Below, in pieces: positions 23,411-39,257 of a stretch of DNA of 64,000 nucleotides (positions are counted from its first letter, which is position 1; each line of letters opens with the position of its first letter). The notes under the pieces are model-generated. The model saw only the letters and a program-made list of their open reading frames with translations. It did not search any database and had not been told where the DNA came from. The stretch spans positions 9,332-73,331 of the forward strand of contig CBDCQZ010000002.1 in the NCBI GenBank assembly GCA_965220715.1. Direction: 5' to 3'. Source of the stretch: Caldilineaceae bacterium. GTDB taxonomy: Bacteria; Chloroflexota; Anaerolineae; Caldilineales; Caldilineaceae. Position numbers and translations under genes: made by a program.

Positions 23411-24253
23411 TCACAATCGCCCCATGGAACGGAGAAGCTCCTGCGCGTAACCGACCACGTCCGCCTGTACGTTCTCGTCAAGCTCTTGAGTTATGAACCG
23501 TGCCGTCCCTATCGGTCCAAGCCCATCGTGATGGCAGAAGTCTCTCTCAATCACGGACAGTGCGTCGTCGATGCAGGTGTCAGGCTGGAGAGGAACCAGG
23601 CTCTCTGCAACACCGGGGACGCCAAGCCCGCTCCATACGTAGAAGAGGTCGTAGGCGTCCTTGTTTTCTGCCCTGTTCCCAAAGGCAAGCGCCTTGAGCA
23701 CGGTAAAGGCGCCTGGGCCGCATACCGGAATATCCCGGGTAGCCCATGCACCGGAAGGAATGCGGCCGGACAGCTCTTTCCAGCGTCGGTCTTTGAATGC
23801 CAGTTCGAGACCTGGCGTGATTATCGCGGCCAGATCAGATTCGAAATGTCGAAGTTCACCCCCCTTATCCCTCTCCGCGATGGGAGGAATCAGAAAGTCT
23901 ACGGTTACAAGATGGGGCGCGCCTGCAGTCCAGGTCTGCAATCTCCTGTTGCCCTGGTCATTGACTTCCGGCTCGAAGCCCGCGTCCCGTAACCTGCGCC
24001 CCAGCTCTCGATAGCGCTCGCAGTTCAGAATGGCCAGCGCCAGGCCCATGTCCAGGTCCATCGTGCCCGCGTGAGGTCCCAAGCCCGGCGGCAAATTTTC
24101 CTGGTCAACAAGGAGATATGGAACCAGTCCGCCAACCACAACGATTTCATCAAGCAGATCGCCCAGCCTGGTCGCCATGTAGAGACATGTCCGGTGGACA
24201 AAGCCCAACTGCTCGATGCCGTACCCGTCTCTTGTCGATGGCTTAGCGATCAT
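23411..24253 (-). CDS. nucleotidyltransferase, AbiEii/AbiGii-toxin-like
   Basis: VVGGLVPYLL...GTMDLDMGLAL (NTase-like G..D.D) and KDAYDLFYV motifs. The preferred ATG at 24253 overlaps the upstream gene by 11 nt. Confidence 0.5.
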   Translation of the reverse strand: MIAKPSTRDGYGIEQLGFVHRTCLYMATRLGDLLDEIVVVGGLVPYLLVDQENLPPGLGPHAGTMDLDMGLALAILNCERYRELGRRLRDAGFEPEVNDQGNRRLQTWTAGAPHLVTVDFLIPPIAERDKGGELRHFESDLAAIITPGLELAFKDRRWKELSGRIPSGAWATRDIPVCGPGAFTVLKALAFGNRAENKDAYDLFYVWSGLGVPGVAESLVPLQPDTCIDDALSVIERDFCHHDGLGPIGTARFITQELDENVQADVVGYAQELLRSMGRL

Positions 24254-25454
24254 CGTTGCCCCGCAAGAGGAGCCGCCTCCGCAGCGCATCGGCGGCTTCC
24301 GCCGCCCTTTCGGGATGGTCCTTCAGGTCGACATAGGCCTGCACAGGATGGACGCAGCGAATCCCGTCGACAAGTACAACGCCGTCGAATACGCCCTCGT
24401 CGTTGGGCACAACCAGCCACGTGTTGGCTCCCCTGGCTTCTTCACGGAAACCGAGTTCCTTCTTCAACCCAGCCGACGGCGAGCTTGAGAGGTACACAGT
24501 CGCAAGGCGGAATCCCGCGTAGCGTGTCCACAGCCACGCCGCGGGGAGCGCAGTCGCTGCGTAGGGCTCCGCAATCCTCGACAAGATTTCGGATATGGCC
24601 TGAATCAGCAGATCGCCTCCCCGGGACGCAATGTGGCCTCGAATAACGTGATGCCGGTCAAACCTGTACTCATCCCGCCAAGCAGCGAGCAGCACGCTCG
24701 TGTCAGTGACACTGATGCCGTCCTCTCCTCGATTGACAAGGCCGGCCTCCAGGAGCTTGCCGACGATGCGGCTCGTATGTCCCTCATCCAGACCGGTGCA
24801 GGAGGCCAGGCTGCGCTGCCTTACCGGTTTGGTGGGTTCCATAAGCAGCCGTCGCGTTATCCGCGCGCCCTTTGGTCCGAATGCGCTCTCCGGTCGTCCT
24901 ACGCGGCGGAAGCGGTTGGGATTGCCCAGGTTCTGATAGAATATACCGGGCGCATTGATGCGCGCGTTTCCTGAGAGATCCAGCCAAGGCAGTTTGGCCC
25001 GCGCGCACAATTTCTGCGCCGCTTCTCCCATGTAAGGGACTGCCAGCAGCGGAATTACTTCATGAGGGAAGCTATGCTTGGCCATCTCCAGTTGGCGGAT
25101 CGCGGCAGCGACATGGCCAGGGGATCCTGAACGCTTCCATTCCAATACAAAGGAAAGATCTCTGGCAGCGAAGAGCGCGTCCCATTGCCGGCCGTCACTG
25201 CTGCGTACAGCAATGTGAGTATCCTCAGCGAACTCGAGATCACCAAGAATCTCGGCGAGACGATCTGCCGCCTGCCGGATAGCGATGGCTTCGCGTGGAA
25301 TTTGCATACTTGCTTTTATACCATTACTTGCGGAAATGCGCAAGTAATGGTGTTTACGCAAATCTTGGCCGTTGTAGACATCTGCCCGGGAAAGCGGTAA
25401 GTTGCCTGGCGTAGAGGTATGGCGGCCAGTGTTATGCCATTGGCTGTTGCTCAT
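24243..25454 (-). CDS. AbiEi-like wHTH antitoxin/regulator with an extra N-terminal domain
   Basis: Central wHTH (RQRSLASCTGLDEGHTSRIVGKLLEAGLV). C-terminal VDGIRCVHPVQAYVDLKDHPERAAEAADAL resembles AbiEi C-termini. The N-terminal roughly 190 aa (DALFAARDLSFVLEWKRSG...) is unassigned. Confidence 0.5.
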   Translation of the reverse strand: MSNSQWHNTGRHTSTPGNLPLSRADVYNGQDLRKHHYLRISASNGIKASMQIPREAIAIRQAADRLAEILGDLEFAEDTHIAVRSSDGRQWDALFAARDLSFVLEWKRSGSPGHVAAAIRQLEMAKHSFPHEVIPLLAVPYMGEAAQKLCARAKLPWLDLSGNARINAPGIFYQNLGNPNRFRRVGRPESAFGPKGARITRRLLMEPTKPVRQRSLASCTGLDEGHTSRIVGKLLEAGLVNRGEDGISVTDTSVLLAAWRDEYRFDRHHVIRGHIASRGGDLLIQAISEILSRIAEPYAATALPAAWLWTRYAGFRLATVYLSSSPSAGLKKELGFREEARGANTWLVVPNDEGVFDGVVLVDGIRCVHPVQAYVDLKDHPERAAEAADALRRRLLLRGNDDR

Positions 25455-25707: not shown

Positions 25708-26109
25708 TTAGGAACGGGGTGGAGCGATGATTTCACAAATGGGGCCGCTGGCGCGGCTGAGCTTGCGGTCGAGCGTCACCAGTGGACAATCCAGAGCCTC
25801 TGCCAGCGCAACGTACCATGCGTCGTAGCTGGTCAGGTTGCCGCGCAACGCCCATATCCGCTCAGCGAAAGGCGCGAAGGGAAACAACTCTATGTCCAGC
25901 CGCAGCAGGTCTCGATGAGCGCTGGTGGCTTCTATACGCGATATCTTCTCACCCAGCTCCAGCCGGCGCAGGATGTTGCTGGCCTCGACGAGAACCAACT
26001 CCGGCCCGGCCAGGTCGCCTTCGGCAAATGTAGCTTCCGCCCACTTGCCCTCGTCGCCCGAATCGACCAGTATCGCGACCAACACGGATGCGTCAACGAC
26101 TGTCGTCAC
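25708..26109 (-). CDS. vapC: PIN-domain toxin VapC
   Basis: MTTVVDASVLVAIL... acidic PIN residues. 133 aa. 4-nt overlap with the upstream antitoxin. Confidence 0.85.
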   Translation of the reverse strand: MTTVVDASVLVAILVDSGDEGKWAEATFAEGDLAGPELVLVEASNILRRLELGEKISRIEATSAHRDLLRLDIELFPFAPFAERIWALRGNLTSYDAWYVALAEALDCPLVTLDRKLSRASGPICEIIAPPRS

Positions 26110-26342
26110 GTTCGATCCGCGTCACGGGCGCGCAGGATATGGTCCGGTTCTACCCGTGTTTCCGCCACTGCCTTCCGCTCGCGAATGCTTTGCAGCCATG
26201 CGGCTATGGAGGGACGCGACGCGATACGCTCCAACTCGCAACGCAAGAACTCTTGCATCGACTGGCGTTGGCGCGCGGCGCGCACGGCGAGCTCATCACG
26301 CACTTCTTCAGGAACATCCCTTATCGTAATCTGTACAGGCAT
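26106..26342 (-). CDS. vapB: VapB/FitA-type ribbon-helix-helix antitoxin
   Basis: MPVQITIRDVPEEVRDELAVRAARQRQSMQEFL, the typical RHH antitoxin N-terminus. Coupled to vapC. Confidence 0.8.
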   Translation of the reverse strand: MPVQITIRDVPEEVRDELAVRAARQRQSMQEFLRCELERIASRPSIAAWLQSIRERKAVAETRVEPDHILRARDADRT

Positions 26343-26690: not shown

Positions 26691-26964
26691 CAACTCAAAC
26701 AGTAGTAGAATCGGGAAGACGTGCGTCCTGATCGCCTTGCCTTTGCTGGGTGAAGGGGTTGCCCGGCTCCGACAGGAGCGACCCGCTCAACCGGTTTCCA
26801 TCACAGTTCAGCCAGCGATAGAGAGGAGCTCGGACGGCTCCCGCCCCTCAATCGATGCCTTATCCCGTTTCATTTTGCCCCCATTTCTGCTCTCAATTCC
26901 TCACTAAAATCTGCACCCTGGCTCTTTCCCAAAAATCTGGGATGGATCTGGTATACTCGTTCGC

Positions 26965-26993
26965 TTGACAAATTTAGCATTGCGAAATATACT
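26965..26993 (+). promoter_or_regulatory. sigma70-type promoter TTGACA-17 nt-TATACT driving the pAgo operon (apparently leaderless)
   Basis: -35 at 26965-26970 and -10 at 26988-26993. The ATG of the first gene is 7 nt after the -10 and no RBS is present. Confidence 0.6.
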
Positions 26994-27000
26994 TAGCAAT

Positions 27001-27360
27001 ATGGCGCGGAACACAGAAAAGTTGGGAGCCTTTCTCGCATCGGCGCGAAGTAAGTTGGACATGTCGCTCCGAGCAGTAGAGAAAGAGACTGGAATATCCA
27101 ACGCCTATCTTAGCCAGTTGGAACACGGCAAGATCAAGACGCCGGCGCCGCAAAACCTGTACAAGCTCGCCCAACTCTATCGAGTGCCCTACAAGTTGTT
27201 GATGGAACTTACCGGATATCCGGTGCCAGAAGCCCCATCCGCTGAGTCTCGGGCCGCCCATGATGCCTTTGCGGCTCGCATTGGCGCGGTCACGGAGGAG
27301 GAAGAAGAGGCGCTCGTCGAATACCTGCAATTCATCCGGTCGCGAAGAAGGAGACGCTAA
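27001..27360 (+). CDS. XRE-family HTH transcriptional regulator
   Basis: LRAVEKETGISNAYLSQLEHGKIKTP is a classic Cro/C1 HTH. The stop overlaps the next ATG (TAATG). Confidence 0.85.
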   Translation: MARNTEKLGAFLASARSKLDMSLRAVEKETGISNAYLSQLEHGKIKTPAPQNLYKLAQLYRVPYKLLMELTGYPVPEAPSAESRAAHDAFAARIGAVTEEEEEALVEYLQFIRSRRRRR

Positions 27361-28301
27361 TGCGGTGGTCCTATTCGGCGAGCCGCTCATTTCGCCAGTG
27401 CCAGAGGCAATGGTTTTTCAAGAATGTCGTGGCAAATGCAAGAGCCAAAGACCCATTCCGAAAGCGAGCCTATCTGCTCAGTAAGCTCCAAAGCATAAGC
27501 GCGTGGCGAGGCAGTATCGTCGATAACGTGATCTCGAACACGATCATTCCCAATATCAATCGCCGCTCCCCAATCACGCTGAACGACGCCAAGACGTACG
27601 CCCGCAGCCTGTTCGACCGGCAACTGGCCTATGCCCGGCGGCATCCGCTCGGGGATTTGGCTCTAAAAGTGTCCCAAGAAGGAGACGATTTTGCGGTCTT
27701 GTACCCTATGGAATATGGAGGAGAATTGCCGGAGCATGAAATCGAACGGGCGTGGGGTGAGGTCGAGACCGCTCTGGAAAACCTGTTCAGGATGGAAGAT
27801 ATCAAACAGATCCTCAAGTCGTCCGATTACGTCGTTGCACAACGCGCGCTCCAGTACAAGCTTATGGATGGTGTGACAGTGCTCGCCTATCCTGACGCAA
27901 TTGCGTTCCGTCGCAGTGCTCCACCCGTAATCATCGACTGGAAGGTTCACGCCTTCGGCACGAACGACGCCTGGCTGCAACTGGCGATCTACGCCATCGC
28001 GCTGAGCCGCTGCAATCCGCATAGTGACTTTCCAACTGGCTTTGGAATGCAGCCTCAAGCATCAACGCTCTATGAAGTCCAACTCCTGACGAACGTCGTG
28101 CGTGAACACTCGCTTGACGAGGAACAGATCGTAGAGGCCGAGGAATATATGTGTAGCTCTGCTTACGAGATAACCTGTCTGACCGAAGGTAGGAAATACT
28201 CTGAACTGAGCGTCGAAGATTTCAGGCTCGCTACGTATGAACAGACCTGCCAACGCTGTGCATTCCGGGCCATCTTCTGGGAGGAGCCCCATGTCGATTG
28301 A
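27360..28301 (+). CDS. PD-(D/E)xK nuclease, Cas4/RecB-like
   Basis: N-terminal SASRSFRQCQRQWFF. Core YPDAIAF...PVIIDWKV (D...DxK). QLAIYAIAL (QxxxY). C-terminal CQRC cysteines. Confidence 0.7.
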   Translation: MRWSYSASRSFRQCQRQWFFKNVVANARAKDPFRKRAYLLSKLQSISAWRGSIVDNVISNTIIPNINRRSPITLNDAKTYARSLFDRQLAYARRHPLGDLALKVSQEGDDFAVLYPMEYGGELPEHEIERAWGEVETALENLFRMEDIKQILKSSDYVVAQRALQYKLMDGVTVLAYPDAIAFRRSAPPVIIDWKVHAFGTNDAWLQLAIYAIALSRCNPHSDFPTGFGMQPQASTLYEVQLLTNVVREHSLDEEQIVEAEEYMCSSAYEITCLTEGRKYSELSVEDFRLATYEQTCQRCAFRAIFWEEPHVD

Positions 28302-30642
28302 AACGAATTGCTTCCGCATTGAAGGCTTGGAGGCGTTAAGCACAACCTATCGTCTATACCGGATCGCCGGTCTTCACCGGGATGGTCAAGAGTACTATGG
28401 CAATGTGCAACGGCTCGTTCGGAAGTTGAGCTATGATCTGAAAGCGCCGGTGACGACCTGCAACATAGAGGACGAGAACTTCCTGGCAGTTCCAACCAAG
28501 TATGGGCACCCTCCGGCGCAAATTCCTCTTGTCCATGCTGTTGCCCTGTTGAAGGACACTGGAAACGAAATCGAGCTCGACTTCACTTCGAACAGACCCG
28601 AGCTTGATACTCTTCGAATTCGGTATCTCCAGTTCGCTTTTCAGAATCCACTCTGGAACAAACCACAATTATGGCAGCCGAGTGCGGGGAAACCGTACTT
28701 CTTCAAAAATCCTCAGCGCCAATTCGGTGAAATCGATCTCTTTGAAGGCTTCACCTTTCGCATTGCGCCACATCCGGAAGGTGGGTTCGGACTCATTGTC
28801 GATCTGCGTCGAAAGCTTGTCTCAAAACGACCTTTGCCGTCATCTCCTCTGCGCGAACATATCAACAAGCTCAAAGGTCGCTCATGTGTTTACAAAATGG
28901 GCCACAATTGGTTCGAGGTAACCCTTGATGGACTCGCCGACGTGAAGGCAGGAGAGCCTTTCATTCCTCTTGGCGGCGAGGCGGTCAGTCTGATCGACTA
29001 CCTGACAAAAAGATCTCGGAAACCTGTCCCGTCCTCAATAGCGAACCTTGCGTCGGACGGCGCTGCAATTTACTACCGTACCAACGGTCCAGGGAAAAAG
29101 TCGGCGCCCACGGCGCTCTGCTATCTGGTCCAGGACACGCATAGCCGAGAGGGCGCGAGGCATCATCATGAGACGCCCATGAAACCACAGGATCGGTACA
29201 GGCAGATCAACCGGCTTGTCACAAAGTTTTTGAAGAAGGTGCCGGTCGGGAACATCACTCTTTCGGTTTCGGAACGGCCAGGGTGTGTGAGAGCGAAACC
29301 GTTCATGCCGCCCAGCTTGCGCTTCGGCAACGGTGCAGTTTTGTCGATCGATGGGGACAATCAAGATGACTGCGCGGCGATCAAGGACTATGGGCAATGC
29401 AGGCTGACGCTCCTGAAAGACAATAAGGCAGGCTTCTATGAACAGAGTCGCCTGAATCGACAATATCTCGTACTACCCAAAAGTGTTCGGAACAGCTTCG
29501 GCGCGCAGTTTCTCAAAGATCTCACGAGGGAGGTAGATAAACTTTACCCCGCAGGTGGCGGATACGATCCCGAAATTGTCATTTATGACGACCCTGATGG
29601 TCGCCGGGGCTTTGCCGGACAGTCACGTGCGATTAAGAAGGCCGTGGAGAACCACCGAGTCAAGCCGGGAGACGCGCTCGTTATGGTACACCGCTACGAA
29701 CGCCGCCCGCGCTCAGCCGATCAACTGGCCGCCTGGACGGTAAAGGAATTCCCCTCCCTGTTCGGTCTCAATGGGGCCGTGATTCACACGGACATGGCAA
29801 AAAAGGCATATGCCGCTAAGAAGTATGGGAACGAAACGCGTTACGTCGTTAGGAGCGCGGAACGTGGTCGTCTCTCCGGTTACTTGCGCAATGTCGCGCT
29901 CAATAAGATATTACTCGCCAATGGGAAGTGGCCATTTGTCCTTGATACGCTTTTGCATGCCGATCTGGTAATCGGAATTGACGTAAAGAATAACACCGCC
30001 GCCTTCACCCTCATTGCTGACAGAGGACAGATCATCAGGTTTTCCATGAGTCCGTCGCGGCAAAAGGAGCAGTTGCTTAAAGCACAGGTCAAGAAAGTCG
30101 TGTACGAAATCATTCGCAAGGATGCCCCCTATTTCAAACAACGCCCAGCAAAGATCGTCATCCATCGTGACGGACGCGCCTGGCCGGCGGAAGTCGAAGG
30201 ACTAAGGGCAGCGTGCGAACAACTTGCCGAAGAGGGCCATTTCGATACGGACTGGCGCCTGACGGTTGTCGAGATCAGAAAGTCTGCGCCGGCGCCGCTG
30301 CGGATGTTCAATGTCAAGCGGCGGAAGGACAGTCAGGTGCTCGATGTAGAGAACCCCACGGTCGGTACCTGGCTACAAACTGCTCCGGACGAGGGCTATG
30401 TCTGCACGACCGGGCAACCATTCTCGATTCCAGGCACATCCAACCCGCTCCACATCCGGCGGGCAGAAGGCGATATGTCCATCGAACACTGTCTGTCGGA
30501 TCTCTTTTCACTAAGCTGTCTCACATGGACCCGGCCGGAGGGTGCGACGCGCCTGCCGCTTTCGCTCAAGCTCTGTGATCGCAGCCTATTCGACGAGGCC
30601 GCAGAATATGATCAGGATGCCATTGAATTCGAGGACAGCTGA
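28291..30642 (+). CDS. long prokaryotic Argonaute (pAgo) with candidate DEDD catalytic tetrad
   Basis: PIWI hallmarks LVIGIDV, KEQL, IVIHRDGR and LKLCDRS. MID-like RYERR..TVKEF..NVALNKILLANGKWPF. 783 aa from the ATG at 28291, which overlaps the nuclease gene by 11 nt. Confidence 0.85.
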   Translation: MSIETNCFRIEGLEALSTTYRLYRIAGLHRDGQEYYGNVQRLVRKLSYDLKAPVTTCNIEDENFLAVPTKYGHPPAQIPLVHAVALLKDTGNEIELDFTSNRPELDTLRIRYLQFAFQNPLWNKPQLWQPSAGKPYFFKNPQRQFGEIDLFEGFTFRIAPHPEGGFGLIVDLRRKLVSKRPLPSSPLREHINKLKGRSCVYKMGHNWFEVTLDGLADVKAGEPFIPLGGEAVSLIDYLTKRSRKPVPSSIANLASDGAAIYYRTNGPGKKSAPTALCYLVQDTHSREGARHHHETPMKPQDRYRQINRLVTKFLKKVPVGNITLSVSERPGCVRAKPFMPPSLRFGNGAVLSIDGDNQDDCAAIKDYGQCRLTLLKDNKAGFYEQSRLNRQYLVLPKSVRNSFGAQFLKDLTREVDKLYPAGGGYDPEIVIYDDPDGRRGFAGQSRAIKKAVENHRVKPGDALVMVHRYERRPRSADQLAAWTVKEFPSLFGLNGAVIHTDMAKKAYAAKKYGNETRYVVRSAERGRLSGYLRNVALNKILLANGKWPFVLDTLLHADLVIGIDVKNNTAAFTLIADRGQIIRFSMSPSRQKEQLLKAQVKKVVYEIIRKDAPYFKQRPAKIVIHRDGRAWPAEVEGLRAACEQLAEEGHFDTDWRLTVVEIRKSAPAPLRMFNVKRRKDSQVLDVENPTVGTWLQTAPDEGYVCTTGQPFSIPGTSNPLHIRRAEGDMSIEHCLSDLFSLSCLTWTRPEGATRLPLSLKLCDRSLFDEAAEYDQDAIEFEDS

Positions 30643-30662: not shown

Positions 30663-31028
30663 ATGAGTGATCTGAGTCTGCTGACCGGCGTTTACGCTGA
30701 TGTCGAAGCATACGGTGTGCTGATAGACAAAGTGATTGAACGCCTGGGACGGGGGCAGGCTGACCCGACTGATCCGGACCAGAAGAAGCTGGCGCAACTC
30801 TTCGTTGATGCCGGCGATCAAGGTCTGGCATCGCAGTCCCTTGAAGCTTTGACATTGGACAGCCTGCTCAGGACAAGAACCGCCGAACCTATGGCAAACT
30901 TGAAACTGCTTGGTGAACGACTTCAGGACGGCGACGTCGATCAAGCATATCTGAGTCAACTCGAGGAACTCGCCAGGAAATTGGAACAGAAGCGGGCGGA
31001 CATTGCCCGCCGGCTACGGGGACGCTGA
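30663..31028 (+). CDS. small acidic helical protein of unknown function
   Basis: 121-aa ORF with an AGGAGG RBS. Heptad-like C-terminus (LSQLEELARKLEQKRADIARRL). The stop overlaps the next ATG (TGATG). Confidence 0.6.
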   Translation: MSDLSLLTGVYADVEAYGVLIDKVIERLGRGQADPTDPDQKKLAQLFVDAGDQGLASQSLEALTLDSLLRTRTAEPMANLKLLGERLQDGDVDQAYLSQLEELARKLEQKRADIARRLRGR

Positions 31029-32179
31029 TGGTCGAGAGATACTTGAGCGGGTCAATTGGTCAACTGCTGGAGCGGGCGCGGCAGTTGCGCCAAATCGTGC
31101 ATGGAACGTATCCGCGTGAATATGATGGCCTGCGGCAAATCTGTTTGAAACACCTTGAAGACATCCAGGCAGAGCTTCAATACTTGGCCCAAGAGACGGT
31201 TGTCGATACGACGTTGCAGACACCGTTGCGTTTGAGGCGCTTCAAACGCATCGTGGAGCATCTCAAAAGCGTCGAAGGAATTGGGGTATTCGCCCTCAGC
31301 AGAGCAAACCATGATGACAACTTTCTCAACCGTCTTATTACGGAGATCTGCCGTGAGATCGCCTTTCCTCTGATCTCTCCGACCATCAGCCACATGTCCC
31401 AGGACTATTTCCATGTATACACAGATTTCTATCTCCTCTGTGTACCCTTGATGGAGAGCAGATTCCTCCTGCATCTGCCCGATATCTATCACGAGTTGTG
31501 CCATCTTTTACACCACGGTCAGAACAACGATCTGCCAACCCTTGAAACGTACCATGCCGCCTACAAGCAAAGTCTGTTCGAGATGGTGAGACATTTCCGC
31601 GACGAAACTGTAGCCGCAGAACGTGTGCGCAAGACGGAGGGCCATCTGTACCAACTTCAACTATGGCGCACCTCTTGGGCCGAGTACTGGATGCAAGAGT
31701 TTTTCTGCGACCTGTTCGGCGTGCTGACTGCTGGGCCCGCATTTGCCTGGTCGCACTATCATCTGTGCGTCAAGCGTGAGAGCGACCCTTTTGAGACGCC
31801 CTTGGCGTTCGTGACGACGCATCCGGCCGATGATGCGCGGATGCGAGCAGCCCTCCTGATGCTAACGGCGACCGGTTTCGCTGCGGAAGTCAAACAGATC
31901 GAAAAAGCCTGGCGGGAGTATGTAGGGATCATGGGTTACTGTCCAGTACCTGAATACTGGCACTGCTACCCGGAAATTCTGCTGTCTGGAATCGTCTCAG
32001 CGGTACAAGACAGCATCGAAGGGATCGGCGTGGTGACGGCAAAGCAGGAGTCGTTGACACCGGTAGTCGGCCTTCTCAACACCGCATGGCAGGAATTCTG
32101 GCGGGCGCCGGAAGGCTATCAGGCTTGGGAGGCGGAGCAGCTCAAGGCATTGCGCGCAACTTTTGACGTGACGCTTTGA
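31028..32179 (+). CDS. HExxH...ExxxD protein (putative gluzincin-like metallopeptidase)
   Basis: HELCH at 31490-31504 and EFFCD at 31697-31711, both in frame. No other recognisable domain. Confidence 0.5.
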   Translation: MVERYLSGSIGQLLERARQLRQIVHGTYPREYDGLRQICLKHLEDIQAELQYLAQETVVDTTLQTPLRLRRFKRIVEHLKSVEGIGVFALSRANHDDNFLNRLITEICREIAFPLISPTISHMSQDYFHVYTDFYLLCVPLMESRFLLHLPDIYHELCHLLHHGQNNDLPTLETYHAAYKQSLFEMVRHFRDETVAAERVRKTEGHLYQLQLWRTSWAEYWMQEFFCDLFGVLTAGPAFAWSHYHLCVKRESDPFETPLAFVTTHPADDARMRAALLMLTATGFAAEVKQIEKAWREYVGIMGYCPVPEYWHCYPEILLSGIVSAVQDSIEGIGVVTAKQESLTPVVGLLNTAWQEFWRAPEGYQAWEAEQLKALRATFDVTL

Positions 32180-32363: not shown

Positions 32364-33338
32364 CTACGCCAGCCATTTGGCGGCACGTCCCGCCTCCTCC
32401 GCGCGCGTATAGACCTCGACCATCCTTGCCGTTTTCCAGCGTCCCTGCGCCATAATCTCATGCGTGGGCGCACCGGCCGCGGCCATGCGCCGCGCCATGC
32501 CGACGCGGCCCGAATGGCCGGAAAAACCCGCCCCCAGGCCGGCCGTCGCGGCCGCGGCGCGGATGCGGCGCGCGATCGAGGGGGCTGAGAGCCCGAACAG
32601 CGCCGCCGCGCCGTCCGCGTCTACCGGCCGCATCGCCGCCAAAGCCGCGACCGCGGCCGGCGTCAGGTAGACGGTGCGTTCCTCGGCATCGGTCTTCGAG
32701 CGGCCCACGGTCAGCCGGCCCGAGCCGTCCTCCCAGCGCGCCACGTCGTCCCAGACCAGCGCGGCCGCCTCGGAGCGGCGCAGGCCGGCGTCCGACAGCA
32801 CGCGGCACAGCGCGATGTCGACCCGCCCGCGGCGCCGCGCCTGTTCAGCCAATTCCAGACGGCCGCCGCGGCCGACGCGCGGCTGGCAGGCGGAGGCGCT
32901 GATCATTGCCAGCGCCTCCGCGGTGAGCGCGTACGCCTGGCGCGGGGGCGGGGCCTGGCGCGCCAGCCCGCTGATCGTATCGGTCACAACCTGGTCGTGC
33001 GCGCTCGGCTCGACGCCGACGAGCGCTTGCAGCTTGCGCAGCGCGGCCACGGTCAGCCGCAGCGAGGAGAGGCCGACGCCGGCCGCGGCCCGCTCCTGCA
33101 GGTAGGCGCGCAGCGCGAACGGCGGCGCGGCCAGCGCATGCACGCCCTGCAACGCGGCCCAGCGGCCCCAGGCCGCCAGCGCGCCGCCGTAGGCGCGGCG
33201 CGTGTTGGGCGCGAGCGCTTCCAAAGCGGCCTCGAAGCGGGTCGAATGTTCGGCGTCGAAGGCTCTGACGAGGCCGGGCGCGGCCTCTTGGACGTTGACC
33301 AGGACGCTTGCGGACGCGCTGGCGGGCGCGGCGCTCAT
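32364..33338 (-). CDS. tyrosine recombinase (same family as 486-1484)
   Basis: GRSKTDAEERTVYL, GHSGRVGMARRMAAAG, RWKTARMVEVYTRAEE. Confidence 0.9.
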   Translation of the reverse strand: MSAAPASASASVLVNVQEAAPGLVRAFDAEHSTRFEAALEALAPNTRRAYGGALAAWGRWAALQGVHALAAPPFALRAYLQERAAAGVGLSSLRLTVAALRKLQALVGVEPSAHDQVVTDTISGLARQAPPPRQAYALTAEALAMISASACQPRVGRGGRLELAEQARRRGRVDIALCRVLSDAGLRRSEAAALVWDDVARWEDGSGRLTVGRSKTDAEERTVYLTPAAVAALAAMRPVDADGAAALFGLSAPSIARRIRAAAATAGLGAGFSGHSGRVGMARRMAAAGAPTHEIMAQGRWKTARMVEVYTRAEEAGRAAKWLA

Positions 33339-33647: not shown

Positions 33648-34088
33648 ATGATCCCGGAATTCGAGCCCGACGGCAACCTGCCCCCAGGTGTCCACTGGGC
33701 CACTTGGCGTGAACTCCATGACCGATTTGGGACAACACGCTGGCGGCGCCGGTTGCTCGTTGGCCTGCGAGCTGCTTTGGAGAACCTGCGGAGCGCCGGT
33801 TGTCTTACAGCTTACGTGGACGGCAGCTTCGTCTCCTCCAAGTCGGAACCCGGCGACTTCGACGCCTGCTGGGAGGAAGCGGGCGTGGATCTCGACAGGC
33901 TTGATCCCGTACTGCTGACATTCGATGACGGCCGCGCGGCGCAGAAGGCCAAGTACGGTGGCGAGTTCTTTCCGGCATCCGCGGTCGCCGGTTTGGGAGA
34001 AGGTGTCTTCTTGGACTTCTTTCAGACCGATAAGGATACGGGTGACCGGAAAGGCATCGTCGCCTTAGATCCAGGAGGTCTGATATGA
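33648..34088 (+). CDS. minimal nucleotidyltransferase-fold protein (DUF6932-like)
   Basis: MIPEFEPDGNLPPGVHWATWRELHDRFG...RRRLL.GL..AL..L..AGC..AYVDGSFVS.K.EPGDFD.CW fits my memory of that family. Confidence 0.5.
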   Translation: MIPEFEPDGNLPPGVHWATWRELHDRFGTTRWRRRLLVGLRAALENLRSAGCLTAYVDGSFVSSKSEPGDFDACWEEAGVDLDRLDPVLLTFDDGRAAQKAKYGGEFFPASAVAGLGEGVFLDFFQTDKDTGDRKGIVALDPGGLI

Positions 34089-34561
34089 TCAAGAATGAAA
34101 GGCAATATCGAATCACTAAGGCCCAGGCAGACCGCTTTTCTGAGGCGCTGCGTAGACTTGATGCCGGTGGGGCAGATCAATCCGAATCCCATCCGCGTTT
34201 GCTCGCCGTGCAGAAAGAGGCGCTGCAGAGCCAACTTTCCGACCTTGAGGCGGGTATTCAGGAGTATGAAACTCTCAAGGCCGGAAACTTTGCGTTTGAG
34301 CAACTGGAGCGTATTTCGGAACTCCCCAGGCTTTTGATCCGGGCGCGCATCGCGAGCGGCCTCAGTCAACGGGGCCTGGCTGACCGCCTCGGCTTGAAGG
34401 AGCAGCAGATCCAGCGCTATGAGGCGAGCGACTACGCTTCTGCGAGTTTTGCCAGAATCAGAGAGGTGGTGTCCGCTTTAGACATAGAGGGAGACGATAC
34501 CGATACCCGACTTGCCTATGAGGGAACTGAGCCTGGCCCTCAAAACTGGACCACGAGCTAA
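34085..34561 (+). CDS. HTH (XRE-type) protein with an N-terminal helical extension, antitoxin-like
   Basis: MIKNERQYRITKAQ... then GLSQRGLADRLGLKEQQIQRYEASDY. 4-nt overlap with the upstream gene. The last five codons and the stop are supplied by the IS3 end. Confidence 0.6.
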   Translation: MIKNERQYRITKAQADRFSEALRRLDAGGADQSESHPRLLAVQKEALQSQLSDLEAGIQEYETLKAGNFAFEQLERISELPRLLIRARIASGLSQRGLADRLGLKEQQIQRYEASDYASASFARIREVVSALDIEGDDTDTRLAYEGTEPGPQNWTTS

Positions 34562-34754: not shown

Positions 34755-37700
34755 ATGCCGTTACCGGGCGGAGCAGCTGAGAAGTTTGGCAACCGATACG
34801 AAGGACGTTGGACTGTGGCGTGCCTGCTGGATGTCATGGCCGAAAAGGCTGACTCGATACGGCTGGAACCGCCCGAACCCGAAGGACAAGGGTTTGAGTT
34901 CTGGACCACGAAACAGGGTATCCAGGAATATCACCAAGTAAAGCGACAACATTCCATCGGGCATTGGACACTCAACGCTCTGAAAAGAGAGGGAGTTCTG
35001 ACCAACTTCACCGCAAAACTCCAAGAAGACCCAATGGTGCGTTGCGTATTCGTCTCTGCCATCTCGGCAGGCCAGTTAGCCGAACTATCTGATAGAGCCA
35101 GAAGGTCGGCTAACTGGGAGGAATTCAACGCAGCATTCATTAACACCGACCAAATGAGGACGAACTTCGATCTTGTTCGTGATTCCCACCCAAGTTTGCC
35201 AAAGCAGGAGACATACGAACAATTAAAGCGCGTCCACATCAGAACGATCGACGAGCCCTACCTCCTCACTATGATCGAAAGCCGCGCATCAACCCTGGTC
35301 GAAGGAGATGACGCAACCGTTGTAGACGTTCTGGCTGCGATGGCTTCAGATGGAGTCCACTATGAACTCACAACTCATGATATCTGGAACCATTTGAAGT
35401 CCAGAGGATTTCGTCGCCGCCACTGGGACAAAGACCCTCATGTCCTGAAGGCCGTTGATGAGGCCAACCAGCGCTACGTTAACTTTCTACGCTATCAAGC
35501 CATCGGCCATACTGTCCTCCCACGCCAAGAGGTTCAAACAGTTCATGATCGCCTGAAAGAATCCAGCGGGAAAACCGGCGTTCTGGTAACCGGAGAGGCG
35601 GGCATCGGCAAGAGTGTGGTGATGCTCCAGGTGGTTGAGGAACTCCTCGACGCTGGCACTCCAGTCGTGGCGTTGCGCGCCGACCGATTGGAGTTTACCC
35701 TGTTGCCAAATGACGTTGGCGAGCAGATTGGACTACCCGGCTCTCCAGCCAACGTCCTTGCCAACGTAGCTCAGGGCAGGCACTGTGTCCTTGTCATAGA
35801 CCAACTGGATGCTTTAAGCATTGCCTCGGGCCGGAATACCGAACTTTTCGACTGCGTCTATGAAATCATCCAGCAAGCGCAAGCCCATCCCAATATGCGT
35901 ATCCTGCTGGCTTGCCGCAAGTTCGATCTTGACAACGACCACCGCCTGCGCCGCCTTACGGACTCAGATGGAGTCGCCGAGCCCGTGGCTGTTGAGCGGC
36001 TGGCGCATGAAACCGTACGTGAAGTTGTCGCAAGGTTCGGCTTGGATGCAAACTCGCTTAATTCCAGCCAACTGGACCTGTTGTCGATCCCATTGCATCT
36101 GAAACTGCTGACGGAGTTGGTGGCAGATGCAGAAATCCGTGCCCTGAACTTCGAGACGTCCCAGGATCTTTACGCGCGGTTTTGGCAGTACAACCAAAGA
36201 GTCATCGAAGAGCGGCTTGGGCGGCCGGTGCAATGGACCCGGGTGGTATATGCCCTGTGCGACCATATGCACGCGCGGCAGACTTTGAGCACTCCGGAAG
36301 TCTTCGTGGAGGACTGGAATAGCGACGCCGAGGCGATGGTGTCGGAAAATGTTCTCGTCCTTGAAAACAAGCGGTACTCCTTCTTCCATGAAGGATTTTT
36401 CGATTACGCATTTGCCCGGCGTTTTGCAGGAGGTTCCCAGAGCCTGTTGGGCCTATTGGAAAGCGGTGAACAACATCTGTTCCGGCGCGCGCAGGTGCGG
36501 CAGATATTGCTTTACCTGCGCGATGCAGATTTCAATCGGTACATCGCCGACCTCGAAGAATCCCTCTCCAGTCCTGACGTTCGCTTTCACATCAAGCAGG
36601 TGGTTTTTGCCCTCTTGGCCGATCTGTCGGGACCTGTAAAGGAAGAGTGGGACGTCTTATCCAGTTTTGCTGGGAAAGACTTCAGCGACTCCTTAACACG
36701 CCTTACCTGGATGACAGTGCGCCGTCCTCCCTGGTTCCGGTTGGTGCACTCCCAAGGATTCGTGCAGCAGTGGCTGGATGACCCGGATGAGGCCTTCGTC
36801 GACCAGACTGTTTCGCTCTTGAGGGTAATCCAGAGGGAATTGCCTGACAGGGTGGCGGAACTTGCAGAACCGTACGTCGGTAAGTCAGAACGCTGGAACA
36901 ACCATCTACTCCACTTGGCAGTGTGGGGAGATTGGAGTCAAGAGCGGCGCTTCCTCGAGTTGGTGTTCCAACTGATAGACAAAGGTGTCCTCGACGACAT
37001 AGCAGACAACCGTGACTTATGGAGCAATTTGTATAGCTTGCAATCCACCCACCCTGTGTGGGGCTGTGAGGTAGCCGGACATTACTTCGATCGCCGGCGT
37101 CACCTGAGCCTCAACGCAGGGCAGCCCAACCCCTTTGACGACAACGACGGCGCCATCGCAAACAGCCAATTTGCTGAAAACACGCTGAAAGAACTTGCCA
37201 GCAATGCCCCAGAGTCTTTCGTTCGAGAGGTTATGCCGTTCATGCGAGCAGTCATAGAGGACTGTGCTTCGCAAGAGCGTGGCGGACTCCTCCAAGACCC
37301 AATCTGGTCCTTCAGGATCTTCCAGAGTGGCTACAGTATCCAAGACGCTCTGCTAAATGCTATGGAAGTTGCCTTGTCCAAGCTGGCTATACTGCATACG
37401 GCGATATACCGCTCAGTGATAGAGCCCCTTCGCGAGTCTCCGTTCGAGACAATCCAATACCTGCTGATCCGCAGCCTCGCTTCTAACGGACCGCTATTCG
37501 CGGACGAGGGAGTAGACCATCTCTGCAAAAGACCGGAGCGACTAAAGATAGGTTACACGTCGAACTTATATTGGGCGTCGAGGCAATTGATCGAATCCAT
37601 ATCGCCCCATTGCTCTGACGAAAAACTCAAACAACTGGAGACATTGCTGCTTGGATATTACCCGGACTGGGAAAAGAGTGTCTTGGGTAGAAATCAACAC

Positions 37701-39257
37701 GGGCACGCTCAGTTTACTCTGCTGAGCGGCATCATTGCGACTCGACGTTCAAAAAAAGTTCGCAAACGTCTCGAAGAGCTTCAACGGAAATTTGGACGGC
37801 CGGAACCGGCATCTCCGACGCCAATGAAAGCGCAGAGGGCCCAGCCTCCGATACCTGCGAATGCGACTGAAAAGATGAGCGATGAGCAGTGGCTTTCAGC
37901 TATACGCCAGCACGATACAGATGATCGCGAATTTGTGCAGAATGATCGTTATGTCGGGGGTGCGGTTGAATTATCCCGACTTCTGGAAGACAGGGTAAAG
38001 CACGAACCTAAGCGGTTCGCGGACTTGGTGTTAAGATTTCCGGATCACACCCATCCATCTTACTTCAAATCGGTGTTGCGTGGAATCAATGACACGAATT
38101 TAGAAATAGAGACCATCGTGAGAGTCGTTGAACGATGCCACCGGGTTGAGGGCAGGCCGCTAGGCCGCTATATCTGCGACCTAATCGCCAGTTCAGCCCA
38201 AAGCAACGTCCCGCCCAAGGCGCTTGATCTTGTGGCGTGGTATGCGACTGCGGATCCCGACCCCCAGCGGGAATTGTGGCGAACTCAGGTTTCGCCTGGG
38301 AAAGAGCATTACTATCGCGGGGACATCCTCACCAACGGCATTAACACAAATCGCGGCAGGTCCGCGCAGGCCATTGCGAGATTGATCGAGATCGACCACA
38401 AAAGAATAGCGCACCTTCAGCCTGCATTGGAGAAAATGATCCAAGACCCTTCAATTGCTGTCAGGTCATGCGTAGCCCAAGCATTGTTGGCCGTTTTGCG
38501 TCATAACCGCGACCTGGCAGTCGAGCTGTTCCGACAACTCTGCAATACAGAAGACGCGTTGCTCCAGACACACTTCATAGAGCGGTTCTTGGTTTTTGCT
38601 CTCCAAACCCACTTTCAGGAACTATCGCAAATTCTGGAACGCATGGCCGTTTCCCAAGTGCCTGATGTCGCTTCCGCTGGCGCGCGTCAAGCCTGCCTGG
38701 CCGCTTTGGACCTGCCAGAGGCCGCTGATATAGCGGGGCGCTGCCTGTCCGGGTCAGAAGCCCAAAAGATCGGCGCGGCTCAAGTAATGGCGGCCAACGT
38801 CAGGATAGCTACGTGCCGCGCATTTTGCGAGGATGCACTGATTATGCTGTTCAACGATACCAGCGCCGACGTCCGTGCTGAAGCTGCGAAATGCTTTCCC
38901 AGTTTCGAGGGAACTCAACTTGAGGAATATGTCCATTTAATCACGCAGTTTGTTTCCAGCAATGCCTTCCAGCAGAATAACTACCCCTTACTGATGGCCT
39001 TGGAACAGACCACGGCCAAGCTTCCTGAAGTCACTCTGGCGGCGTGCGAGCGATTTGTAGACATTGCCGGACTTGCGACATCCGACATCAGTACAAGAGC
39101 GGCATGGGACGCAGACACTGTCATAAAATTGACTCTACGCACCTATCAACAGAGTTCAGGCGAAACAACACGAGCCAGAAGTCTTAATCTTATCGACAAG
39201 TTTATGGAGCATGACACCTATGGAATAAACAAAGCGCTAGAGGACTTCGAGCGGTGA
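34755..39257 (+). CDS. 1500-aa nuclease-like N-domain / P-loop NTPase / HEAT-repeat protein (STAND/AVAST-like candidate)
   Basis: The N-terminus (FGNRYEGRW...IRLEPPE...FEFW...YHQVKRQ) resembles a Cap4/DUF4297-type PD-(D/E)xK. Walker A VLVTGEAGIGKSVV. Walker B CVLVIDQLDAL. The C-terminal roughly 900 aa is helical with HEAT-like units (DPSIAVRSCVAQALLAVL, DTSADVRAEAAKCF). Confidence 0.65.
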   Translation: MPLPGGAAEKFGNRYEGRWTVACLLDVMAEKADSIRLEPPEPEGQGFEFWTTKQGIQEYHQVKRQHSIGHWTLNALKREGVLTNFTAKLQEDPMVRCVFVSAISAGQLAELSDRARRSANWEEFNAAFINTDQMRTNFDLVRDSHPSLPKQETYEQLKRVHIRTIDEPYLLTMIESRASTLVEGDDATVVDVLAAMASDGVHYELTTHDIWNHLKSRGFRRRHWDKDPHVLKAVDEANQRYVNFLRYQAIGHTVLPRQEVQTVHDRLKESSGKTGVLVTGEAGIGKSVVMLQVVEELLDAGTPVVALRADRLEFTLLPNDVGEQIGLPGSPANVLANVAQGRHCVLVIDQLDALSIASGRNTELFDCVYEIIQQAQAHPNMRILLACRKFDLDNDHRLRRLTDSDGVAEPVAVERLAHETVREVVARFGLDANSLNSSQLDLLSIPLHLKLLTELVADAEIRALNFETSQDLYARFWQYNQRVIEERLGRPVQWTRVVYALCDHMHARQTLSTPEVFVEDWNSDAEAMVSENVLVLENKRYSFFHEGFFDYAFARRFAGGSQSLLGLLESGEQHLFRRAQVRQILLYLRDADFNRYIADLEESLSSPDVRFHIKQVVFALLADLSGPVKEEWDVLSSFAGKDFSDSLTRLTWMTVRRPPWFRLVHSQGFVQQWLDDPDEAFVDQTVSLLRVIQRELPDRVAELAEPYVGKSERWNNHLLHLAVWGDWSQERRFLELVFQLIDKGVLDDIADNRDLWSNLYSLQSTHPVWGCEVAGHYFDRRRHLSLNAGQPNPFDDNDGAIANSQFAENTLKELASNAPESFVREVMPFMRAVIEDCASQERGGLLQDPIWSFRIFQSGYSIQDALLNAMEVALSKLAILHTAIYRSVIEPLRESPFETIQYLLIRSLASNGPLFADEGVDHLCKRPERLKIGYTSNLYWASRQLIESISPHCSDEKLKQLETLLLGYYPDWEKSVLGRNQHGHAQFTLLSGIIATRRSKKVRKRLEELQRKFGRPEPASPTPMKAQRAQPPIPANATEKMSDEQWLSAIRQHDTDDREFVQNDRYVGGAVELSRLLEDRVKHEPKRFADLVLRFPDHTHPSYFKSVLRGINDTNLEIETIVRVVERCHRVEGRPLGRYICDLIASSAQSNVPPKALDLVAWYATADPDPQRELWRTQVSPGKEHYYRGDILTNGINTNRGRSAQAIARLIEIDHKRIAHLQPALEKMIQDPSIAVRSCVAQALLAVLRHNRDLAVELFRQLCNTEDALLQTHFIERFLVFALQTHFQELSQILERMAVSQVPDVASAGARQACLAALDLPEAADIAGRCLSGSEAQKIGAAQVMAANVRIATCRAFCEDALIMLFNDTSADVRAEAAKCFPSFEGTQLEEYVHLITQFVSSNAFQQNNYPLLMALEQTTAKLPEVTLAACERFVDIAGLATSDISTRAAWDADTVIKLTLRTYQQSSGETTRARSLNLIDKFMEHDTYGINKALEDFER

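Follow-up and report, generated by a model that had tools for sequence, protein, structure and literature searches.

Genes of the operon

The stretch of DNA considered here (the window) is a 64,000-nucleotide segment from a Caldilineaceae bacterium (contig CBDCQZ010000002.1, positions 9,332 to 73,331), and our subject is a five-gene operon on its forward strand that contains a prokaryotic Argonaute (pAgo) and ends in two genes whose products we call p121 and p383. The operon order is helix-turn-helix (HTH) regulator, Cas4-like nuclease, pAgo, p121, and p383. The HTH gene (27001..27360) encodes an XRE/CapH-like repressor (Pfam HTH_19, E 1.5e-12; PADLOC capH, 2.4e-8), and it is followed by genes for a Cas4-like PD-(D/E)XK nuclease (27360..28301; Pfam PDDEXK_1, 1.6e-10; PADLOC Aga_Cas4-like_Nuc, 2.4e-127) and a long-A pAgo of the PliAgo group with an intact DEDD tetrad (28291..30642; PADLOC pAgo_II, E 0; PDB 7r8f, E 6e-213, full length). 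Next comes p121 (30663..31028), a protein of 121 aa from no known family, and then p383 (31028..32179), which has an ATG start, is 383 aa long, and is predicted to be an M48-like zinc metallopeptidase. Stop/start codon overlaps run along the operon from pAgo through p121 to p383, and the ATG of p383 shares one base with the TGA of p121 (cgc tga tgg). A preliminary description of this sequence had placed p383 at the end of a pAgo operon that begins with an XRE-type HTH; both points are borne out. That description passed over p121, which always precedes and overlaps p383.

The longest open reading frame (ORF) for the pAgo, from 28237, would overlap the nuclease gene by 65 nt (28237-28301); an ATG at 28291 (M19, MSIETNCF...) is the likelier start, and both the PADLOC profile and the alignment with PliAgo begin there. 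D564, E593, D627, D763, and K566 are invariant in our pAgo alignment (A6) and correspond to D563/E592/D626/D762 and K565 of PliAgo (PMC9360449); PDB 7r8f was taken as PliAgo by its matching tetrad numbering in that paper. Because of the 7r8f match, the DEDD tetrad, and the group-specific lysine, we assign the window pAgo to the PliAgo group of DNA-guided RNA-cleaving enzymes. For p121, searches of Pfam, NCBIfam, and PHROGs gave no match, and PADLOC gave a marginal one (PDC-S48, E 0.02).

Conservation of the five-gene order

Searching with p383, we collected 63 genome loci. The five-gene order is present in most of the complete ones, and also in 80 metagenome loci, and among the genomes it recurs in Chloroflexota, Nitrospirota, Latescibacterota, Poribacteria, Gemmatimonadota, Proteobacteria, Planctomycetota, Cyanobacteria, Bacteroidota, Verrucomicrobiota, and Acidobacteriota. 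In the archaeon Nitrosotalea, the genes detected beside p383 were limited to pAgo and an ORF of 144 aa that occupies the position of p121. Among the PliAgo-type genome loci examined, p121 is the gene immediately before p383 in every one (38/38). As an unbiased scan, metagenomes were searched with pAgo alone, and we counted those loci with enough flanking sequence: p383 was present in 53/53 (one copy truncated), p121 in 71/71, the Cas4-like nuclease in 63/63, and the HTH in 55/57. The small protein and the peptidase are linked to these Argonautes as tightly as the Cas4-like nuclease is; therefore, the natural system has five parts, including a predicted proteolytic step.

Earlier work describes the operon but not its last two genes. 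The parts of Lisitskaya et al. 2022 (PMC9360449) accessible to us report that PliAgo and PnyAgo operons are constant in composition, and they name a Cas4-like nuclease plus, as regulator, an HTH protein in the PliAgo group and a sigma70-family factor in the PnyAgo group. The window agrees with that account in its PliAgo-group pAgo and in the upstream nuclease and HTH. It departs from it in p121, p383, the peptidase nature of p383, and the fusions presented below, none of which are discussed in the text or supplements of that paper as far as these are accessible. No published function for p383 was found in the literature searched, nor was any paper linking an Argonaute to a protease.

p383 as a predicted M48-like peptidase

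The preliminary description had pointed to an HELCH and an EFFCD motif in 31028-32179, 64 residues apart, and reading the DNA confirmed both. HELCH (31490..31504, forward strand; codons cac gag ttg tgc cat) would provide the zinc ligands H155 and H159 and the catalytic base E156. EFFCD (31697..31711, forward strand; codons gag ttt ttc tgc gac) contains the predicted third zinc ligand, E224, which lies 65 residues after H159, plus D228 and the near-invariant C227. These are followed by THPADDAR (31817..31840, forward strand; T264 to R271), a third M48-type motif of the form (S/T)-H-P-x4-R. The HExxH...ExxxD motif by itself is not strong evidence: when p383 was shuffled, HExxH arose in 6.5% of sequences and HExxH with ExxxD 15-90 residues on in 1.3%, and of the 216 ORFs that reach 100 aa in the six frames of the window, 3 contain HExxH. 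We regard the p383 motif as real because it is conserved across homologues. At E ≤ 1e-3 there are 664 of these, none of them named and none with a Pfam domain, and in 30 close homologues H155, E156, C158, H159, E224, C227, and D228 are invariant. When the comparison is widened to 19 aligned sequences, with identities as low as 16%, just 13 columns are invariant: P140, H155, E156, H159, E224, F226, C227, D228, L229, F230, G236, P266, and R271. Full-length copies reached independently through the pAgo gene (n = 54) all have HExxH (54/54) and HPx(3-5)R (54/54), and 51/54 have ExxCD at 61-65 residues. The Cys of EFFCD is nearly invariant. That within HELCH (C158) is conserved only among the closest relatives, and HELAH occurs most often. 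A chance motif in a non-coding ORF is ruled out by the 664 homologues and the conservation pattern.

Whether searched as a single protein or as a profile (alignment A2), p383 was unmatched in Pfam, NCBIfam, PADLOC, PHROGs, and the PDB sequences, and the PDB sequence search returned coiled-coil noise on the N-terminal helices only. The link to M48 runs through distant relatives. A genome scan found proteins of 430-510 aa with the motifs HE(I/L/M)GH, EE(F/L)FCDLFG..GP, and THPPx3R, which form a sister family (93 sequences, alignment A4) whose homology to that of p383 extends over 324 columns (hhalign probability 98.5%, E 2.5e-15). Peptidase_M48 is the Pfam match of 17/93 sister-family members, with a best E of 1.5e-4, and the next commonest family matched 3; one member is named Peptidase M48 domain protein in UniRef, and another member of the superfamily, P0272, exceeds the gathering score of M48 (PF01435; 21.3 versus 20.3 bits). 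Clustered at 50% identity, the superfamily comprises 3,581 clusters with a threshold of E ≤ 1e-3 and 1,148 with E ≤ 1e-10, and it has no Pfam, NCBIfam, or PADLOC model.

As a comparison set, we aligned Escherichia coli HtpX, BepA, LoiP, and YcaL to the p383 and sister alignments by hhalign. All three motifs aligned with those of the E. coli M48 enzymes, with scores of 32-45 compared with at most 19 for reversed or column-shuffled controls. The sister family (A4) matched YcaL at 75% probability (P 2.6e-5), the p383 alignment (A2) matched YcaL at 34.5% over 98 columns from HExxH to THP, and the best segment against HtpX/YcaL fell at the THPADDAR region. HExxH, ExxCD, and T-H-P-x4-R come in the same order as in the E. 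coli enzymes, with EFFCD aligned to ExxAD; the H-to-E spacing is 65 residues in p383 and 55-79 in the E. coli M48 enzymes (ExxAD), and the E-to-HP spacing is 41 and 43-54, respectively. At the level of motifs, then, p383 has HExxH on a predicted active-site helix, an ExxAD-type Glu, and a C-terminal (S/T)HPx4R, as M48 enzymes do. Compared with M48 as a whole (HtpX, YcaL, LoiP, BepA; clan MA gluzincins), to which M56 with BlaR1/MecR1 is related, p383 is alike in its collinear motifs, their spacing, and the profile matches via the sister family, and unlike in having no transmembrane or periplasmic parts, in its own N-terminal (~110 aa) and C-terminal (~115 aa) helices, and in the Cys that replaces Ala in the Glu motif.

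Other peptidase families fit less well. In M4 enzymes the third ligand lies ~20 residues past HExxH (NExxSD). The 65-residue spacing in p383 and the absence of a Peptidase_M4 match in Pfam ruled out this thermolysin-type arrangement, so that of the original proposal of a thermolysin-type gluzincin the gluzincin part very probably stands and the thermolysin part does not. The alternative proposal of an ImmA-like protein also had to be abandoned. p383 has no Pfam match to the M78 family of ImmA, IrrE, and CapP (PF06114), its Glu is at 65 residues rather than the ~25-30 of the ExxAN.FA..LLMP motif, and hhalign of p383 against three M78 proteins from the loci collected here aligned 11-24 columns, around HExxH only. 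YgjP/DUF45 and SprT were rejected at hhalign probabilities of ≤3%. From these sequence comparisons, we conclude that p383 is best described as a soluble M48-like gluzincin of a new family, distant from the HtpX/YcaL/BepA type, with the link to M48 being indirect. It is very probably a gluzincin-type zinc metallopeptidase, with zinc binding and proteolysis as predicted properties, and we have high confidence that it is a metal-dependent peptidase of some kind.

An AlphaFold2 model of p383 built on 30 homologues (predicted local distance difference test (pLDDT) 86, predicted template modeling (TM) score (pTM) 0.86) has four N-terminal helices, three short strands (119-140), the HExxH helix (152-161), and two long helices, the second of which carries E224 and D228 and is followed by a disordered loop; a helical C-terminal part begins at T-H-P-A-D-D-A-R. 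This order of secondary structure in the model is compatible with a zincin core. In the Foldseek fold check, the model matched no solved M48 or other peptidase structure, and there was no peptidase among the 50 PDB matches listed (best E 0.55, TM <0.2). A fold of the core only (residues 108-305, A3), meant to strip helical noise, reached a pLDDT of 56.6 and was set aside.

Promoter and HTH regulator

Just upstream of the HTH gene on the forward strand lies a near-consensus sigma70 promoter (TTGACA-17-TATACT, 11/12, at 26965-26993) whose -35 and -10 boxes are covered by two imperfect palindromes (26962..27000). The palindromes end 1-3 nt before the HTH ATG (promoter region 26962-27003), and in most of 20 genome loci compared by eye the layout is TGCTTGACA-N5-7-(T/A)AGCA, then GCT..-N7-9-..AGCA-N1-3-ATG. 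An automated inverted-repeat search of the promoter found none because the palindromes are imperfect; they emerged on comparing loci. The start assigned to the HTH by the ORF finder, TTG 26965, coincides with the -35 box, and ATG 27001 is the likely start. From this layout the mRNA is probably leaderless, and we infer that the palindromes are operators of the HTH; promoter and palindromes together would imply a leaderless, auto-repressed operon.

The match of the HTH to the capH profile covers residues 18-122 (profile 5-96/103), and its nearest PDB sequence is 8bny, "Immunity repressor protein" (1e-4). In the HTH orthologues, the HTH itself and a conserved GYPVP are followed by a linker of ~15 aa, which varies, and by a C-terminal helix that is conserved (ARIGxVTxEEEEALVEYLQFIRSRK).

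Loss of Argonaute, fusions, and related cassettes

In six loci found via p383 (L003, L008, L011, L012, L017, and L029), the Cas4-like nuclease and pAgo have been deleted independently, on at least four occasions, with at least four different deletion end points. The deletions are clean in L003 (2546-4512) and in the divergent L029 (7218-9131; 39% identity), whereas L008 (6990-9152) and L012 retain an in-frame Cas4(1-17)::pAgo(715-783) remnant and L011 (6915-9170) and L017 a Cas4 stump. HTH, p121, and p383 are intact in each of them, with all catalytic motifs. According to the pAgo-centered scan, the reverse loss (p383 lost, pAgo kept) is at best rare. Many of the pAgo-less loci are metagenome-assembled genomes of lineages that we take to be mostly sponge-associated.

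Three otherwise normal HTH-Cas4-pAgo-p121 operons end in a fusion. p383 carries a C-terminal CHAT caspase-like domain in P0318/L074 (8001-9830; E 4e-9) and in P0346/L075 (8001-9899; E 2e-4), and in P0330/L076 (5311-7710) it carries a 420-aa domain of unknown family that bears a second HExxH (HEFLH). At its end, the CHAT-fusion gene of L075 overlaps a 401-aa gene whose family is unknown.

The pair extends to the PnyAgo-type operons of Verrucomicrobiota (L050:2850-8726; L053, L055-L058), where a 137-aa gene (7157-7570 in L050) and a p383 relative follow pAgo. The 137-aa protein shares the termini of p121 (MSxLG..., ...RRLRxR) and its position; similarity between the two is weak (hhalign P 0.01, one hmmsearch match at 3e-5), and we consider it the probable counterpart of p121 on these sequence features. 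These operons open with a 208-aa protein that has no significant family match and a 126-aa protein of unknown family; the sigma70-family label given in the literature to the PnyAgo-type regulator was not confirmed by Pfam or NCBIfam.

The sister family occurs in cassettes of its own, which have the order MerR/HspR-like regulator, 145-aa protein, M48-like protein, and dCTP-deaminase-like enzyme (L068:5028-7969, L071:1249-4287, L070:5136-7986, L051:6946-9314). The M48-like and dCTP-deaminase-like genes are fused once (P0214), and in most of the sister cassettes examined a small ORF lies right upstream of the peptidase gene. No similarity was detected between p121 and the 145-aa protein. Elsewhere in the sister family there is a divergent XRE HTH or, upstream, a divergent ORF that was read as AbrB-like without profile support. 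In the proteobacterial loci L068/L069 and L071/L072, the cassette is located beside an XRE + Peptidase_M78 pair and a ubiquitin-like operon (Multi_ubiq/E2/ThiF/BubE, Bub-type). No known PADLOC system matched these cassettes, literature searches found no paper on the M48-like/dCTP-deaminase combination, and the four-gene cassette is apparently undescribed.

A possible repressor-cleaving switch

The reading that we favor, and hold tentatively, is that p383 cleaves the operon's own HTH repressor. p383 and the translationally coupled p121 would then form a proteolytic switch of a normally repressed PliAgo-type operon. The CapH-like HTH, bound to two operators over the -35 and -10 boxes, would hold the leaderless operon at a basal level. 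An invasion or DNA-damage signal, sensed via p121 or via nucleic-acid products of the Cas4-like nuclease and pAgo, would activate the latent peptidase, which would cut the HTH in its variable linker or its C-terminal helix. The cut would derepress the operon, with positive feedback because the peptidase is itself encoded in the operon. Several observations are in line with repressor cleavage: the CapH-profile match over the whole length of the HTH, with a variable linker between conserved parts; the two conserved palindromes at the promoter and the presence of the HTH in 55/57 operons; the retention of an intact HTH-p121-p383 set after Cas4/pAgo loss; and a candidate transcription factor that, in every subtype of peptidase cassette examined, stands at the head or next to it. 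These regulators are identified to different degrees, as the XRE type is confirmed, the MerR/HspR-like one is a weak NCBIfam match, the sigma-like one comes from the literature only, and the AbrB-like one was recognized by eye. There are precedents for such cleavage. ImmA and ImmR are encoded in one operon (immR-immA-int), and BlaR1, an M56 peptidase of the same clan as M48, cleaves BlaI, the repressor of its own operon. CapP cleaves CapH in its C-terminal domain and thereby derepresses an immune operon (bioRxiv 10.1101/2022.04.27.489752).

A number of observations weigh against this interpretation. Concerning the peptidase itself, Foldseek of the full p383 model found no match in the PDB or BFVD (best E 0.55 and 0.19, respectively; TM <0.25), p383 has no Pfam M48 match (none at E ≤ 1), and the comparison of alignment A1 with M48 was not significant. 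As to the substrate, nothing points to the HTH in particular as the target of the peptidase. PnyAgo-type operons, which have no XRE HTH, contain the p121-p383 pair too, the HTH-less operons L099 (1963-6005) and L115 (93-2641) keep p121 and p383, and L009 likewise has p383 without an HTH. (Upstream of the nuclease, L099 has an unrelated 845-aa protein and L115 one of 509 aa that is E1/ThiF-like by eye only.) Three genes separate p383 from the HTH in the full operon, and the two are near-adjacent only in the pAgo-less cassettes, all of which were found via p383 and are thus subject to ascertainment bias. Canonical XRE-M78 pairs are adjacent, and such pairs are found right beside sister cassettes. 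Lastly, the CHAT and dCTP-deaminase-like fusions are unexpected for a pure transcriptional regulator.

Among the XRE + M78 pairs (ImmR/ImmA, DdrO/IrrE, CapH/CapP), those of the CapH/CapP type are the closest functional analogues of the operon; they follow the same logic with a peptidase of another family, in another gene order, and with no small partner. As in those pairs, the first gene encodes a CapH-like HTH, a peptidase with HExxH belongs to the same transcription unit, and the putative operators overlap the promoter. Unlike them, p383 has no GAF domain, has its Glu at 65 rather than ~30 residues (29 in CapP), is not adjacent to the HTH, and has an obligatory small partner in p121; members of its family are also found with regulators other than XRE and as fusions with effector domains.

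Other roles for the peptidase

The evidence on the role of p383 is divided between repressor cleavage and an Argonaute-coupled output, in which p121 and p383 would come into play once a target is recognized. The trigger would be pAgo binding or cutting its RNA target, or else products of the Cas4-like nuclease; the peptidase, once switched on, would cleave p121 or another protein, leading to growth arrest or a transcriptional response in a manner reminiscent of the protease arm of type III-E CRISPR. The linkage in pAgo-found loci speaks for this output (p383 53/53 and p121 71/71, as tight as Cas4 at 63/63), as do the stop/start overlaps from pAgo through p121 to p383, which suggest translational coupling, the occurrence of the pair after pAgo in PnyAgo-type operons with a different regulator (sigma70-family per PMC9360449), the fusions of p383 to CHAT (L074, L075) or to the 420-aa second-HExxH domain (L076), and the sister family's position beside, and once fused to, a dCTP-deaminase-like enzyme. 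We rate it somewhat below repressor cleavage, as less likely than not: all four DEDD residues are retained in the window pAgo, whose group slices RNA unaided in vitro, whereas accessory effectors typify inactive pAgos (PMC12094033); HTH-p121-p383 persists without pAgo; and the sister cassettes have no Argonaute. Unlikely, in our estimation, is the more far-reaching proposal that RNA-targeting PliAgo and PnyAgo Argonautes are protease-signaling systems, in which an invader RNA recognized through the guide would activate the M48-like peptidase, reinforced by a fused CHAT domain in some lineages, and cleavage of p121 or of the transcription factor would produce a transcriptional or abortive response. 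If true, this would be the first Argonaute coupled to a protease and, among Argonautes, the equivalent of the type III-E CRISPR Craspase.

It is quite improbable that p121, as inhibitor or bait, and p383, as protease, form an autonomous toxin/antitoxin-like or abortive-infection pair that travels with varied defense genes without acting on them. Independence of this kind would account for the stand-alone HTH-p121-p383 cassettes with intact motifs in several lineages, including L029 (39% identity), for the small ORF that overlaps the peptidase start in all PliAgo-type operons and lies upstream in most sister cassettes, and for the pairing of the superfamily with unrelated partners (pAgo + Cas4, dCTP-deaminase-like enzymes, CHAT). 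The 53/53 linkage to one pAgo clade and the conservation in a second clade of DNA-guided RNA-cleaving (D-R) Argonautes favor functional integration instead, and p121 has no detectable similarity to the 145-aa sister-cassette protein. We give least credence to the idea that p383 is not a protease at all and that its zincin-like domain is a metal-dependent hydrolase of another substrate (e.g., a nucleotide) or a non-catalytic scaffold. This very improbable alternative draws on the lack of a structural match to any solved peptidase, the lack of a direct Pfam match for p383, and the linkage and fusion of the family to a nucleotide-metabolizing fold (dCTP-deaminase-like). It has to contend with a catalytic Glu and three ligand positions that are invariant across ~3,600 clusters and that a scaffold would not need, and with the fact that the sole recurring family in the profile searches is a peptidase family.

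Relation to known systems and genomic surroundings

The type III-E CRISPR Craspase consists of Cas7-11, the TPR-CHAT protease Csx29, its substrate Csx30, and a sigma factor. Our operon resembles it in its set of genes, which combines a guided nuclease that targets RNA with a protease, a transcription factor, and a small protein whose fold is unknown; CHAT is present in some p383 copies, and PnyAgo-type operons are reported with a sigma70-family factor. The two differ in that the enzyme here is predicted to be a metallopeptidase and not caspase-like, and the resemblance is not one of homology. The inducible defense island of enteropathogenic E. coli likewise has a repressor first and a predicted M48-family metallopeptidase last, and differs in its defense genes, which are type I restriction-modification and DarTG; its M48 protein was set beside p383 by description only. 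Among Argonaute systems, APACE1 (PMC12094033) also combines an active long-A pAgo with a Cas4-family nuclease, ACE1, that may make guides, and unlike our operon it is a two-gene, DNA-targeting system for which no HTH, small protein, or peptidase is mentioned. SPARTA, SPARSA, and SPARDA and the long-B systems BPAN, BPAS, and BPAM join an inactive pAgo to an effector, in contrast to the window pAgo with its intact DEDD.

The operon lies within a defense or mobile island. On its upstream side, all on the reverse strand, are an OLD-family AAA/TOPRIM nuclease (21347-23317), two uncharacterized genes (23411-24289 and 24243-25454), and a VapC/FitA-like toxin-antitoxin pair (25708-26342). Downstream are a tyrosine recombinase on the reverse strand (32364-33338) and, on the forward strand, a DUF6932 protein with an HTH (33648-34561) and a STAND NTPase of 1,500 aa with HEAT repeats (34755-39257).

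Work on DNA-guided RNA-cleaving Argonautes has so far treated them as single enzymes for biotechnology, and what they do in the cell has yet to be established (PMC9360449). The analysis defines a large uncharacterized superfamily of predicted peptidases (~3,600 clusters) that recurs with defense-type partners, namely Argonaute, dCTP-deaminase-like enzymes, and CHAT, and by adding two constant partners to the PliAgo-type operon it opens the in-cell function of RNA-targeting Argonautes to simple experiments.

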